Positions 5,894 through 10,573 of a DNA stretch of 15,675 bases are shown in pieces; positions within the stretch are counted from its first letter, which is position 1; every line of letters begins with the position of its first letter. Source of the stretch: Candidatus Thorarchaeota archaeon (lineage in GTDB: Archaea; Asgardarchaeota; Thorarchaeia; Thorarchaeales; Thorarchaeaceae); NCBI GenBank assembly GCA_048882385.1, contig JBHLRQ010000077.1:1-15675 (forward strand). Reading direction: 5' to 3'. The notes beneath the pieces are model-generated. The model made no database searches and had not been told where the DNA came from. It saw only the letters and a list, made by a program, of their open reading frames with translations. A program made the position numbers and the translations under genes.

Positions 5894-6661
5894 ATGGGAC
5901 TCGTAAGGTCTAAAGAAGATATCAAGAAACGATACAAACAGTACGAGAACGGTTACCAGCTTCTCGATGTCAGAATGCTATATGCAATGTTCTCGACCAC
6001 AATGGAAACAGTTGAACGTCTACTACCACCACCACTTGAACCAGGAGATACCCTTGTATGTGTTGCGTTCGTCGCGGAGTATCACAGGACCAATTTTATT
6101 CCACCCTATAATGAGGCTGCAGTGTTCATCCCATGTCAATACAAGGGAGAAGCAGGCAGATACTGTGTAGCCATGCCTGTAACTACTGACATTGCAATGA
6201 TAGGGGGGAGAGAAGTCTACGGGTATCCCAAAAAGATTGCTGAAAAGATATTCATTGAACAAGTTGGAAACGAAGTCCATGGGCTTTGTGTACGTCATGG
6301 CGTCCCCATTATCGAAATCAAAGGAACCCTGACTGAGGAGTTGGAAGCAAGAGAAGCCCCAGGACCTAGTTTTGTAATCAAGTCTATGCTTGATGAGAAA
6401 GGTGTTGGAGTAGCTAAGAATCCAATCCTAATCAGAAATGTAAATCCTTCTGAATTTGATAAGATAGAAATTGGAGAAGGAACATTGACTTTTGGCGAAT
6501 CCAAATATGACTACCTTCATGAGATTCACATCGACCAGGTGATGGCTATCATGTTTATGGAAGACGGTACCATCACCATGCCTCCTGGCGAAATAATCGC
6601 AGAAATCGATGCCGAGGAGTATGCCCCCTACCACTTTATCAAATATGACTGGGAAATCTAA
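5894..6661 (+). CDS. Acetoacetate decarboxylase (ADC) family protein
   Basis: ERLLPPPLEP, PYNEAAV, and GGREVYGYPKK containing the Schiff-base Lys motif. Purine-rich RBS (aggagaggag) upstream. Confidence 0.9.
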   Translation: MGLVRSKEDIKKRYKQYENGYQLLDVRMLYAMFSTTMETVERLLPPPLEPGDTLVCVAFVAEYHRTNFIPPYNEAAVFIPCQYKGEAGRYCVAMPVTTDIAMIGGREVYGYPKKIAEKIFIEQVGNEVHGLCVRHGVPIIEIKGTLTEELEAREAPGPSFVIKSMLDEKGVGVAKNPILIRNVNPSEFDKIEIGEGTLTFGESKYDYLHEIHIDQVMAIMFMEDGTITMPPGEIIAEIDAEEYAPYHFIKYDWEI

Positions 6662-6713
6662 TTATCGAAAGAGAGCAAGTAAGAGACGCTCAGGGAAAGT
6701 TATTGTATTCTAA

Positions 6714-7472
6714 CTAATCTGTCATAGTTTCACATTCCTTAAGAAATACTATGGCACCTTTGGGCAATTTAGGTATGTCAGGTCCAGCAGCAGTCAGACT
6801 AATCGACAACACAACAGGTCTTTTTAGAGGTTTCTTCATATTCCTCTTTTTTGGAGATTTCAGATCGTCAAATTTGCCAATAGCTTCATGCATATGGTGA
6901 AACAGAGTGCTCAAGTCTTCAACATCATCCACACGAAAAGAAAGTAACTTCGTAACGACAAGTCGATCATCCTTTGCATCACTACTTGGATTTTGAGCTA
7001 AGTTCAAAATTAATTTAGATGAATATTGGTTAAGCATATTTGGAAGTGTTTCGATGGTATCTACCCAATCAGTAATGATATCTGATTTTCCCATTTCCTG
7101 AGCAAAGTCAGTTAGTTTTGCTACGTCGAATTCCTTTGTTGCCTTAATGAGGTCTTTTGAAATGAAGTAACGCAATCTGTACCGCTTGTCTGATGCAGTT
7201 TTGAGTTCTTCCTTATCAAGTATATGAGCATCGTGAAGGAGTGCTAAGTTTCTAAACATTGTTGCCTTACTGAGTCCTGTTATCTCTCTTAGCTTTGCTG
7301 GTGTTGTACTACCAAAGAGTAGGAGATAAGAGTAGATGAGAAGACAAGAGTCTAAACGAATGATCTTATTGAGTCGCTTCATCCTTTCAAGTTGTTTTTG
7401 CTCATCTAACTGAATCTTACTCTTTTGCGGAATTGTATGAACCTCCTTTAGTTCCCGACCTATCTCTCGCAT
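6714..7472 (-). CDS. Winged helix-turn-helix transcriptional regulator (ArsR/TrmB-like N-domain plus uncharacterised C-domain); true start may lie downstream of 7472
   Basis: IYSYLLLFGSTTPAKLREITGLSKATMFRNLALLHDAHIL...RYRLRYFIS is an HTH plus wing pattern. Confidence 0.85.
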   Translation of the reverse strand: MREIGRELKEVHTIPQKSKIQLDEQKQLERMKRLNKIIRLDSCLLIYSYLLLFGSTTPAKLREITGLSKATMFRNLALLHDAHILDKEELKTASDKRYRLRYFISKDLIKATKEFDVAKLTDFAQEMGKSDIITDWVDTIETLPNMLNQYSSKLILNLAQNPSSDAKDDRLVVTKLLSFRVDDVEDLSTLFHHMHEAIGKFDDLKSPKKRNMKKPLKRPVVLSISLTAAGPDIPKLPKGAIVFLKECETMTD

Positions 7473-7478
7473 GAGCCA
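7461..7478. promoter_or_regulatory. Putative operator copy 3 (TATCTCTC-GC-ATGAGCCA) next to a TATA-like TTTAAA (7480-7485) at the start of the wHTH gene
   Basis: 16/18 identical to the reverse complement of the operator at 8427-8444. Confidence 0.65.
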
Positions 7479-7510
7479 CTTTAAAGAATTAACTGTCCTC
7501 TAAAGTGGCT
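7474..7510. other. Perfect 10-bp inverted repeat (agccacttta N17 taaagtggct) between the protease and regulator genes; possible RNA hairpin or terminator
   Basis: 7474-7483 is the exact reverse complement of 7501-7510. Confidence 0.55.
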
Positions 7511-7517
7511 TTGAAGA

Positions 7518-8378
7518 TCAATTAGAATTGCTACTGATAAAAGCAAATCTTTGATTGGGATAGTCAAGAAGGAGCTCATAATTCTTCAAGAAAGGATATC
7601 CAACAATACCATAATCGATCTTCTTTCCTGTGGGTGAAATCATTTTGAGGTCAATGACTCCAAGCATGATGTTGTTTTGAACTGCTCCACCAATTGATAG
7701 ACTATCAACGATTGTGGCATATCCCATAGCTTTTCCTCCAATCCCCACACATTCACCACCTGAACAACCAGATGGACTTGGAGTACCTTCAGGAAGTTCC
7801 TCTGAAAGGCCGATGGTCTCAGCTAATTTTGGTGTTATAACATTTCCACTGGAACCGGTATCAAGAATTAGATCGTAGGGACCTTCACCATTGATGAAGA
7901 CAGGCACACCAACAAGATGTGCATTTTCTATGTATTTGAAATTAGTCCAATCGATTCCATCAGAAACAGTCTTGCCATTTTCTTTCTGCATTGAAAGAGT
8001 CAATGTACTATAGTCAATAGAAATACGATAGTCTTTGAGAATATCATGACCAATAACGCCTCCCGTAAAGCATCCAACTCCTTTGAATACAGAATCGAAA
8101 TCAAGCACCTTCATTTCCATGTTCAGTGATACTTCATCTCCTATTGAAAACTCTGAAACCATGGCATTCCATATAGGCACAGGTGATCCACCAGCTCCGT
8201 GGGCATGTTTCTTTTCACCAGAGTAAATTTCAATCCCCAATCGTTCTGCTAGTGACTTAGATATGGTTGTGTAACTAGCACCAGTATCAAATGTAAAGTC
8301 AATTGGGCCTGTTCCGTTCAACATTACAGGCACATGAACATGTCCTGAAGCTGGATCAATCTTGAATTTTAATTTCAT
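7518..8378 (-). CDS. Twin-domain retropepsin-like (clan AA) aspartic protease
   Basis: Two repeats, each with VPVxxNGxGP, D-T-G (FTFDTGAS at D31; LILDTGSS at D173) and a downstream G-hydrophobic-hydrophobic-G motif (GVIGHDIL; GIVGYPFL). No signal peptide. Confidence 0.92.
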   Translation of the reverse strand: MKLKFKIDPASGHVHVPVMLNGTGPIDFTFDTGASYTTISKSLAERLGIEIYSGEKKHAHGAGGSPVPIWNAMVSEFSIGDEVSLNMEMKVLDFDSVFKGVGCFTGGVIGHDILKDYRISIDYSTLTLSMQKENGKTVSDGIDWTNFKYIENAHLVGVPVFINGEGPYDLILDTGSSGNVITPKLAETIGLSEELPEGTPSPSGCSGGECVGIGGKAMGYATIVDSLSIGGAVQNNIMLGVIDLKMISPTGKKIDYGIVGYPFLKNYELLLDYPNQRFAFISSNSN

Positions 8379-8400
8379 TTTTAACCACTCGTTTTTAACC

Positions 8401-8444
8401 TATCTCACTTGTGAGATATGATAACCTGTCTCATGCGTGAGATA
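8401..8444. promoter_or_regulatory. Two tandem palindromic operators: TATCTCAC-TT-GTGAGATA (8401-8418) and TGTCTCAT-GC-GTGAGATA (8427-8444)
   Basis: The first is a perfect 8-bp inverted repeat with a 2-nt spacer; the second is near-perfect. Both lie in a 24-bp direct repeat (8396-8419 and 8422-8445, 20/24 identical). Confidence 0.85.
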
Positions 8445-8461
8445 TATTAATGTTGGTTTTT
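8443..8461 (-). promoter_or_regulatory. Archaeal TATA box (TTAATATA) with A-rich BRE-like element for the aspartic protease gene
   Basis: Minus strand reads aaaaaccaaca-TTAATATA-tctcac..., ~65 bp upstream of the ATG at 8378. Confidence 0.6.
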
Positions 8462-8488
8462 GAGCAGGAAATTCAAGGACTATCCCAT

Positions 8489-10573
8489 TTAGCAATTTGA
8501 TGTTATGAAGACATACCAGCCGAAGGTTCCAGGTATTGGATCGGAGCAGACATAACCGAATCCATATGCATGGTCATTGACAGGATCATCCTGCTGAGGA
8601 TTCAAGGGATTTGATGATTTTGATGCATAGAATACAGCTGAAAGGATATCACTACCCTCAGTTTCAGCGCATGCTCTGAACCACGCATCCTTTATTGTAA
8701 GAGCGGGTGAAGCTCCGAATCCAGTCATATAAGTCCCGAATTTTGTGCCTCTCGTCCGAGCATTATGACTAGTCGTACTAAATCCACATACCATGTGGAT
8801 TCCCTGCAAAGTATCAGCCCAGCGCTCAAACACATTGTGTCCTGTGCTATTTTCCCAAGCTAGTGGACTGCAGGCATCAATGGCAATTGTGTCTAAATCT
8901 CCATCACCCCATCTACATTCCCTAAAGAGAAGTGATTTGTCGTCATTGTTCGTTCTGAATGTTACTCCATCAGGACCTCCATGATCCTGATAGTAAACGA
9001 AATCAACAGCATCAACCCATTCGCTATCTGTCCCACCATAGGCTTCATCTTTGAAATCCTCTTCCCAAGCACTATATTCTCCCCAGTTGAACTCTTGACT
9101 GTATCCTCCCATAACTCCCATCCAGCTATAGAAGCCTTCTATGTTTGTCTCTGTATTCCATAATGGTTTCCAGACAGATATTCCACACCATTCTATACCT
9201 ACCTCTTTGACACCATCATCGTATGCGCCTGTTGGTGCACTTGGACTAAACACTCTGTTATCATGAAGGTCATTAGTGGCGTCCACAATTGGCATTATTG
9301 TGAAAGCTGAAAGGAGCATAGAAAACACAATTAGAAACAACATCAAAACCATGGCTCCTCGTCGCTTTAAAAGAAGAATAGCTGCACCAACAACCACGAT
9401 AAGTGAACCAGCTGCGATTGCTATGGTCAGAGTTGTTGGGAATGTACTGATTGTACCTGCTTCGATAAAGACGGCAATATAGTCCATGCACCATCTATCA
9501 AGGGAGTCTTTGACTCGAACATGAATAGTATGTGGAACTGGTACTCCTTTTTTGTCAACTATTGTAAGTGAGCTTGTGGAAAAATTCTGAGCGACTGATA
9601 GTAATCCGTCAAAGTCAGAATACCAGTAGTAAACAAAAGGTCCTAGTCCATTAGTAACGACACACTCGAATGTAATGTCTTCATATTGTGTGAATGTAAG
9701 GTAGTGGCCTGGCGAAACAATCTCGACCTCCGGATCTATCAGAAAGGCGGCTATTTGAATAATCTGGAAGATATCCTCTCCATCATCAGCATCATTGATA
9801 ACCAGCTCATAATAGGGCTTGAGGAGATTGGATTCGTCTGATGATTCTGCATAATACACTAGTTCATGATTAACAACATCATCAGGAGAAAGACCATAGT
9901 GTTCGAGAATTGAGTCGTATTCGATGATAGGTTCTGTTGCATATGGTTCTGCCTTTAGTTCACGATGATTCCAGTTGAATCCAGCAATCTCTCCTCCCTC
10001 ACCAATCATTACTGTAATCTGTTCTCCAGGACCCTTTACGGGATTTTCACCAAGGAACATCTCGTAGTTCACATGCCACTGAATGACTTTGGTATTTGAA
10101 CCCCCAGCATCTATATTCCAAGCTGTCACGTTTGTTGAACCCATATTTACGAAGACGTAATTTGGAGGACGTAGTCCCTTTTCGTCAAGCCAAGCGTCTG
10201 CTTGATCTCTACATGCAGTTGGTGTAGGTACTGCTATTCCTAGTGCAATATTATATAGAAGGTCATAATCTGCAAACCACATCGACCCATCCCGAGAATC
10301 CATCTCGAAAGTCTTGTTTCCAGACCTCACTACATATTTTCCCTCAACATCCTGAGCGGATGAATCTCGAAATCCAAAGAGAGCATACGCCATGTCTTCA
10401 GCATACGTTAGATTCACTTCAGGGGGAATAATCTCGTAGACTGGCATCTCCACCTGTGAAAGAACGAAATCTGGTTTCTCAATCGTCACTGTGCTATGAG
10501 TTGTTGCAGTTTCACTAGAAACTGAAAATACCATCAAAAGCATTACTATAATTAGAATCGCATCCCGCTTCAA
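8489..10573 (-). CDS. Exported/membrane-anchored multidomain protein: signal peptide, uncharacterised N-domain, Ig/PKD-like domain, TM-KRR-TM hairpin, C-terminal DUF6345-like domain with His-Cys dyad (putative clan CD cysteine peptidase)
   Basis: N-terminal MKRD plus hydrophobic stretch; PKD-like PEVEIVSP...YYWYSDFDG...HTIHVRVKDS; TM aa ~381-402 followed by KRR; second hydrophobic stretch aa 408-430; C-domain with AWEEDFKD...VDAVDFVYYQDHGG (H531), WGDGDL, IAIDACS (C568). The DUF6345 assignment is from recalled motif resemblance, not a search. Confidence 0.75.
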   Translation of the reverse strand: MKRDAILIIVMLLMVFSVSSETATTHSTVTIEKPDFVLSQVEMPVYEIIPPEVNLTYAEDMAYALFGFRDSSAQDVEGKYVVRSGNKTFEMDSRDGSMWFADYDLLYNIALGIAVPTPTACRDQADAWLDEKGLRPPNYVFVNMGSTNVTAWNIDAGGSNTKVIQWHVNYEMFLGENPVKGPGEQITVMIGEGGEIAGFNWNHRELKAEPYATEPIIEYDSILEHYGLSPDDVVNHELVYYAESSDESNLLKPYYELVINDADDGEDIFQIIQIAAFLIDPEVEIVSPGHYLTFTQYEDITFECVVTNGLGPFVYYWYSDFDGLLSVAQNFSTSSLTIVDKKGVPVPHTIHVRVKDSLDRWCMDYIAVFIEAGTISTFPTTLTIAIAAGSLIVVVGAAILLLKRRGAMVLMLFLIVFSMLLSAFTIMPIVDATNDLHDNRVFSPSAPTGAYDDGVKEVGIEWCGISVWKPLWNTETNIEGFYSWMGVMGGYSQEFNWGEYSAWEEDFKDEAYGGTDSEWVDAVDFVYYQDHGGPDGVTFRTNNDDKSLLFRECRWGDGDLDTIAIDACSPLAWENSTGHNVFERWADTLQGIHMVCGFSTTSHNARTRGTKFGTYMTGFGASPALTIKDAWFRACAETEGSDILSAVFYASKSSNPLNPQQDDPVNDHAYGFGYVCSDPIPGTFGWYVFITSNC

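Follow-up and report, generated by a model that had tools for sequence, protein, structure and literature searches.

A twin aspartic protease and a winged helix-turn-helix regulator with predicted shared palindromic operators in a Candidatus Thorarchaeota genome

MarR-family autorepressors, such as E. coli MarR at marO and Sulfolobus ST1710/BldR, have in common a winged helix-turn-helix (wHTH) fold, palindromic operators of 16–20 bp, two sites per promoter and the co-control of their own gene. A comparable arrangement is found in a stretch of 15,675 nucleotides from a Candidatus Thorarchaeota genome (contig JBHLRQ010000077.1 of assembly GCA_048882385.1; this whole stretch is referred to below as the window). 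It contains a two-gene module on the minus strand, in which the gene of a twin aspartic protease is followed by that of a MarR/ArsR-like wHTH regulator, and three copies of an 18-bp palindrome that lie at the predicted promoters of both genes. In contrast to the MarR family, the regulator carries an additional C-terminal part of about 110 amino acids, the promoters are of the archaeal TATA type, and the target is a protease and not an efflux or catabolic gene.

Repressors known from archaea, among them Phr, MDR1 and LrpA, occupy the TATA box or the DNA just behind it and block the TATA-binding protein (TBP) and transcription factor B (TFB) or the polymerase, whereas activators bind upstream of the B recognition element (BRE). 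Phr from Pyrococcus furiosus is a heat-shock wHTH repressor whose palindromic site lies at the transcription start and which also controls its own gene negatively. Its structure (2p4w) resembles that of the regulator only in the wHTH (model residues 27–121); no sequence similarity between the two was detected, and both operator and regulon differ. The ArsR/SmtB proteins, compact wHTH dimers of about 100 amino acids with sites for sensing metals or metalloids, show a likeness in fold (Z 8.1–8.9); the regulator has 239 residues, and the HTH_5 family is matched by only 4 of its 34 relatives. For the uncharacterised protein Kfla_6221 (4g6q), the alignment of 4g6q_B extends into part of the C-terminal region of the regulator.

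Adjoining repressor and protease genes with autoregulation via palindromic operators are also known from ImmR/ImmA, DdrO/IrrE, BlaI/BlaR1 and LexA. Those systems rely on zinc metalloproteases or on a self-cleaving repressor, whereas the protease of the present module is aspartic, unlike the zinc enzymes ImmA/IrrE and BlaR1, and is itself the regulated product. A further parallel concerns the start codon. In bacterial infC, which encodes IF3, a conserved AUU start on a regulatory gene, placed behind a good ribosome-binding site, suggests throttled or feedback-controlled translation. The regulator gene, with its probable ATT start, belongs to another domain of life with other initiation factors. 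Within the part of the literature reached by a full-text search, neither the module nor archaeal AUU starts were found to be treated, and no Asgard transcription factor has, to our knowledge, been matched experimentally with its DNA site.

Predicted operators at the two promoters

The elements of the module, given in the orientation of the window, are the following.

8443–8450, minus strand: protease promoter, TATA box TTAATATA, which shares its final two nucleotides with the beginning of O1; an A-rich, BRE-like stretch lies just upstream
8427–8444, minus strand: operator O1; coding strand TATCTCACGCATGAGACA, then GGT (8426–8424); predicted at about -24 to -7
8401–8418, minus strand: operator O2; perfect palindrome TATCTCACAAGTGAGATA, then GGT (8400–8398); predicted at about +1 to +20, over the start and the early 5' untranslated region (5'UTR)
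7518–8378, minus strand: twin (two-lobed) clan AA aspartic protease, 286 amino acids; Pfam Asp_protease_2 in two stretches
7480–7485, minus strand: TATA-like box TTTAAA of the regulator's own promoter
7461–7478, minus strand: operator O3; coding strand TGGCTCATGCGAGAGATA, then GGT (7460–7458); predicted at about -22 to -5
7441–7446, minus strand: Shine-Dalgarno-like (SD) sequence GGAGGT, 7 nt before the ATT
7431–7433, minus strand: probable regulator start codon ATT
6714–7433, minus strand: regulator, 239 amino acids from the ATT (252 if from the ATG at 7472); wHTH protein with the recognition helix LSKATMFRN

The three copies described in the original prediction are exact in sequence and coordinates: copy 1 (O2) reads TATCTCACTTGTGAGATA, copy 2 (O1) TGTCTCATGCGTGAGATA and copy 3 (O3) TATCTCTCGCATGAGCCA. 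The distance of 26 bp given there for the first two is their start-to-start spacing, and both belong to a 26-bp tandem direct repeat (8396–8421 and 8422–8447). The identity of 16 out of 18 positions claimed between copies 3 and 2 is obtained only when copy 3 is reverse-complemented; read in one orientation, the two agree at 12 of 18. Regarding the TATA-like boxes, the claimed placement is found again, as TTAATATA shares two nucleotides with copy 2 and TTTAAA ends one nucleotide before copy 3.

On the coding strand, the protease leader reads TTAATA-TATCTCACGCATGAGACA-GGTTATCA-TATCTCACAAGTGAGATA-GGTTAAAAACGAGTGGTTAAAA-ATG, with a transcription start predicted near 8422–8418. The leader of the regulator, TTTAAA-G-TGGCTCATGCGAGAGATA-GGTCGGG (7485–7454), places O3 between TTTAAA and the predicted transcription start near 7456–7454. 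The two halves of O3 are unequal, the right one being strong and the left one degenerate. Furthermore, every operator of the window and of the orthologous loci is accompanied on its coding-strand 3' side by GGT, often extended to GGTTA(A), with no mirror counterpart on the other side.

The rarity of the motif was evaluated both in the window and in the source genome (G000), of which 3,698,314 bp were scanned. The window holds three matches at up to three mismatches, compared with a mean of 0.43 in shuffled sequences, and 5 of 200 shuffles reach three; the support which this test alone lends to copy 3 is weak. At up to one mismatch, copies 1 and 2 are the sole matches in the entire genome. A weight matrix was then trained on 29 orthologue sites, with the window's own sites excluded, and 7,386,388 genome positions were scored. 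O2, with 29.4 bits, ranks first and O1, with 28.8 bits, second among all of them. O3 obtains 18.7 bits, a score equalled or exceeded at seven positions, four of which are the two strands of O1 and O2. By uniqueness and by matrix rank, the genome scan that had been suggested as a check consequently finds a motif that is not scattered at random.

Seven other top-scoring sites of the source genome were examined: four lie in long open frames, one near the start of an open frame (C1:88185), one at a gene junction (C103:7751) and one in an intergenic position (C25:4038). A wider regulon in this genome was set aside, given the four of seven sites within long open frames. In five other genomes, the additional near-perfect sites inspected fall in coding sequence, except for one at a protease paralogue of genome G063 and one in genome G062 (L029). 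The latter, G062:C4:100299-100316, is a perfect TATCTCATCGATGAGATA located 71 kb from the module of that genome, with no open frame of at least 40 codons over it; it may be a further target.

Conservation, unlinked genes and recognition-helix variants

The regulators of the compared loci are 32–47% identical to that of the window. The window consensus, with two mismatches allowed, was counted in 30 further distinct loci; 36 matches fall in the 5,816 bp of expected promoter zones and a single one in the 134,381 bp elsewhere. At least one match is present in 24 of these 30 loci; the other six are cut by the contig (L018, L010, L023, L056, L026) or carry a diverged variant (L065). All 17 loci in which the 5' end of the protease gene is on the contig show at least one site matching at least 11 of 14 positions, and 14 of them show two. 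Before the orthologous proteases the layout recurs: A-rich DNA and CTTAATA come first, then TATCTCAYnnnTGAGAyA with GGTTAA behind it, and finally another palindrome. From start to start, the two sites are 26 bp apart in the window, as they are in 10 of the 14 other loci with two sites upstream of the protease (a count in which L005 and L019 are the same DNA), and 18 to 30 bp apart in the rest. In an alignment of 25 rows anchored on O1, in which the search pattern placed the L017 and L028 rows on the wrong site, the column consensus immediately ahead of the first operator is TTAATA.

A similar picture is obtained at the second promoter. An O3-like site precedes the regulator in 19 of the 20 loci scanned, with a nearly invariant right half, TGAGATAGGT, and a loose left half; it is also found in L008 and L039, both of which are without an adjacent protease. 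At the same place before O3, most loci with a SKAT-type helix carry TTTAAw or TTATAg. Ten loci were fetched after the motif had been defined, and nine of them contain the motif or a variant of it at the expected places, the tenth (L056) being cut at the contig edge. The conservation upstream of orthologues that the original prediction had proposed to examine is therefore borne out, with the palindrome at the same places in the orthologous loci.

The association with both genes is readily apparent where these are separated. In genomes G061 and G382 the regulator gene follows that of a PAS histidine kinase (Pfam-confirmed for L008 of G061, and by sequence likeness to the eye for L039 of G382) and keeps TTTAAAG, O3, SD and ATT, while the protease, on another contig, keeps TATA, O1 and O2. 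The genome of L008 (also G385) is in genus g3 together with G382, so these observations amount to about one independent unlinked case. A different situation is met in G063, where a second twin-protease paralogue, 37% identical, is preceded by an operator identical to the O1 of this genome, fused to TTTAATA and followed by GGTTAA. In G361 (C1:521639-524899; L067, L069, L070, L052), the regulator is preceded by a tandem array of three twin-protease paralogues, and a pair of operator-like sites lies upstream of the array.

The half-sites vary together with the recognition helix of the regulator. The helix SKAT(M/T/I)FR is accompanied by T(A/G)TCTCA/TGAGA(T/C)A and the helix AHASVFR (seven loci) by TATATCA/TGATATA in O2 and O3, while SNATVFR (L004, L052) occurs with TGATA right halves and GKSSLYR (L065) with TGTCCCA/TGGGACA. 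This covariation points to the regulator, and not to another factor, as the protein that reads the motif.

The regulator, its start codon and the protease

In the model of the regulator obtained with AlphaFold2 (AF2), with a predicted local distance difference test (pLDDT) value of 85.6, a long N-terminal helix leads into the wHTH with its beta wing (E85-89, E100-104), after which come a long helix and another conserved region; the C-terminal domain, about 110 amino acids in length, belongs to no known family. Structural comparison with VIA-align matches it to 4g6q_B (Z 9.5 over 158 residues), to ArsR/SmtB proteins (Z 8.1–8.9) and to Phr 2p4w (Z 8.7). With Foldseek the best match is Phr 2p4w (E 4.8e-3), and ST1710, MarR and Rv0880 are also retrieved. 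By the model and these matches, the protein has a winged helix-turn-helix fold like that of the MarR family. At the sequence level, the only Pfam match of the window regulator is FUR (E 0.0097, 16.5 bits against a cutoff of 23.1), and the MarR family models (PF12802 / PF01047) are not reached, with no match at E≤0.01. Pfam MarR_2 is matched by 31 of 34 relatives (E≤0.01; best 8.2e-9), and because of this the family as a whole is considered MarR-like. A profile search of the regulator against PDB sequences returned nothing meaningful (best E 0.14), and when the C-terminal part was searched against the ESM Atlas, no score exceeded 0.84, which is below the meaningful level.

Regarding the translation start, the ATG at 7472 that opens the longest frame (6714–7472) lies inside O3, and the resulting N-terminus, MREIG, is the operator read as codons (GAG ATA GGT). 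The same spurious EIG extension is found in three database relatives with long N-termini (P0007, P0008 and P0018). In 18 of 21 distinct loci, an SD sequence (GAGGTGA or GGAGGT) is followed after 6–8 nt by an in-frame ATT; the position of the ATT is taken by ATG in L004 and L021 and by ATC in L026. ATG, GTG and TTG are all absent from the open frame before the first wHTH helix (residue 40) in six loci, often because the frame is closed there by the TGA of GAGGTGA. Since SD and in-frame ATT are conserved across loci and the upstream frames lack the usual starts, the regulator most likely begins at the conserved ATT 7433–7431 and not at ATG 7472. In the f5/g41 clade (L053, L055, L057, L059, L060), about 20 nt separate the protease from the regulator, which has an SD sequence and ATG but neither O3 nor a promoter of its own. 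The strength of the start codon thus seems to go with the promoter layout, ATT being found in clades where the regulator has its own promoter and ATG in f5/g41. Such a non-canonical ATT start is overlooked by gene callers, and the deposited N-termini of the regulator family vary and are partly wrong. A possible pairing of the segment upstream of the regulator TATA with the SD–ATT spacer was also considered; it was seen in L011 and L014 only and was dropped as too thin.

The protease belongs to the Pfam family PF13650 (Asp_protease_2), which it matches in two stretches with 105.5 bits against a cutoff of 24.3. An assignment to the subfamily NCBIfam TIGR02281 was rejected, the score of 44.1 being below the cutoff of 57.95. 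The catalytic triplets D31-T32-G33 and D173-T174-G175, one DTG per half, are invariant in 19 sequences. The AF2 model (pLDDT 87.1) is two-lobed, and its best Foldseek match is 9iy9, a putative endopeptidase of Bacteroides (E 5.8e-12, TMq 0.71), followed by pepsins and renins. The N-terminus contains no hydrophobic stretch, and for this reason the protease is read as cytoplasmic. A loop of the second lobe, G-C-x-x-G-x-C-x-G-x-G-G at about residues 205–216, has no counterpart in the first lobe; its G208, G212 and G215 are invariant and C210 is nearly so, and the loop is missing in the protease paralogue of the source genome and in L017, L018 and L025. This paralogue, a second twin aspartic protease (L003, C22:32357-33169), is 44% identical to the window protease. 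There is no wHTH partner beside its gene and no site on its contig at up to two mismatches; the preceding gene resembles a methyltransferase by eye.

Among 400 genomes of the phylum, the regulator is present in 33 (E≤1e-20); many of these genomes are incomplete, and such figures are to be read as counts among the genomes searched and not as absence. It was not found in any of the 27 other species of the genus to which the source genome belongs, and elsewhere the module occurs in other genera and families of the phylum, a patchy spread which suggests loss or transfer. In a search of 1.84 billion proteins the family is represented by 63 sequences at E≤0.001; it forms 42 clusters at 90% identity, and all source names that bear a lineage are Asgard labels. 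The protease lies directly upstream of the regulator in every locus with DNA there, except L008 and L039. The other neighbouring genes vary from locus to locus among those compared, and no conserved neighbours of the module were observed. Two further features border or interrupt the module in the window.

8489–10573, minus strand: protein of 694 amino acids with a C-terminal DUF6345 domain; the gene ends 35–40 bp upstream of the protease TATA box
7474–7510, minus strand: inverted repeat in the protease–regulator spacer, with 13-nt arms that are 92% complementary; 13–15 bp hairpin on read-through RNA

The DUF6345 gene was rejected as a member of the module, as flanking genes differ between loci. 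The inverted repeat takes in the TATA box of the regulator and the left edge of O3, and its fold is estimated at about -23 kcal/mol (-25.6 for 7431–7520; z -3.42). No such hairpin was seen by eye in the orthologous spacers inspected, and an Rfam scan of 6600–8700 (E≤1) gave no match.

Proposed mechanism, alternatives and significance

The arrangement is best read as that of a dedicated autorepressor, to which we assign a probability of about 0.7: the only targets of the regulator would be the protease gene or genes and itself, its level would be held low via the ATT start, and it would be released by some signal. The regulator, presumably as a dimer, would recognise TATCTCA-N4-TGAGATA, a palindrome of 18 bp behind which GGT usually stands. 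In front of the protease, O1 would overlap the 3' end of the TATA box and O2, 26 bp further on, would cover the predicted start. At the regulator promoter, the half-degenerate O3 would occupy the space between TATA and the predicted start. Once filled, these sites would hinder the binding of TBP/TFB or the recruitment of RNA polymerase, and both genes would stay repressed until a signal, probably sensed by the C-terminal domain, releases the regulator. The weak ATT start behind a strong Shine-Dalgarno sequence would keep the amount of repressor low. The autoregulated module put forward in the original prediction is thus strongly supported in its comparative part by what is directly observed, that is the operator sequences, how rare and unique they are in the genome and how well conserved, their association with the two genes (also where these are unlinked, and at the G063 paralogue) and their covariation with the recognition helix. 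From the position of the sites we infer binding and repression; the dimer state, the transcription starts, the signal and the use of the ATT are predictions.

Several observations weigh against this interpretation. The TATA boxes and transcription starts are predictions from sequence and conservation only. The one-sided GGT(TA) is not accounted for by a symmetric dimer. The left half of O3 is poor, since the window and 10 other loci keep the palindrome at 4 of 7 positions, and among the 20 loci scanned L016 lacks a recognisable O3. Nor do all clades share the three-site layout, as f5/g41 demonstrates. The loci being kin, the covariation comprises few independent events, perhaps three. Furthermore, the window regulator falls below the threshold of every Pfam wHTH family. 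The spacer hairpin at 7474–7510 is also left without explanation by an autorepressor.

One alternative is that the regulator, bound to these very sites, works as an activator or in both directions, for instance by recruiting TFB/TBP to a weak TATA box or through a ligand-dependent switch. The sign of regulation is indeed deduced from position, O1 abuts the TATA box without fully covering it, and the one-sided conserved GGT(TA) flank could belong to a composite promoter element. However, all three sites lie at or downstream of TATA, with O2 over the predicted start, where bound archaeal factors are known to repress, and the TATA boxes (TTAATATA and TTTAAA) look strong; activation is accordingly judged unlikely. 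It is more doubtful still that some other gene supplies the factor which binds the motif, or that a special promoter element is involved, with a merely positional association to the wHTH gene. The link between regulator and motif is drawn from comparison, but the motif precedes the regulator gene even where the protease lies elsewhere, it varies along with the recognition helix, and in the source genome it is found at no other promoter.

It is highly improbable that the palindromes act as 5'UTR RNA hairpins, affecting stability or translation, and not as protein-binding DNA. Such a role would agree with O2 forming a 7-bp hairpin in the predicted 5'UTR and with the fold of the O1–O2 region (-18.2 kcal/mol, z -3.64), but the predicted UTR of 49 nt alone is not unusual (z -1.68), and the Rfam scan gave no match at E≤1. 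Moreover, base identity is conserved and not merely pairing, the half-sites being fixed and the N4 centre free, and mixed sites such as TATATCA..TGAGACA break the pairing. O3 is palindromic at only 4 of 7 positions, yet its right half is nearly invariant, and O1, by its overlap with TATA, should lie upstream of the transcript.

An extension of the autorepressor model is a proteolytic switch, in which the protease, after its synthesis or activation, would cleave its own repressor, perhaps within the conserved C-terminal KRRNWKKPL..PV.LSISL, and thereby produce a bistable induction. The AUU start would hold the repressor near the threshold, possibly via start-codon discrimination by archaeal initiation factors. 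Cleavage of the repressor by the protease is speculation, and the switch as a whole appears rather unlikely; a complex prediction of the protease with regulator residues 14–252 gave a score of 0.00, which carries no weight either way. If true, neither an aspartic-protease/repressor switch nor a conserved AUU-start control would have been described earlier in archaea.

The regulatory logic is that of a textbook wHTH autorepressor and as such already known. What is new is an Asgard-restricted regulator family with a C-terminal domain of no known family, a predicted operator with natural specificity variants, a two-lobed aspartic protease as the partner, and a conserved ATT start. The module thereby offers a small regulator family with a precise predicted operator, natural variants of specificity and a one-target regulon, and the predicted operator is testable in vitro with purified protein and short DNA probes, without the need to culture the organism.

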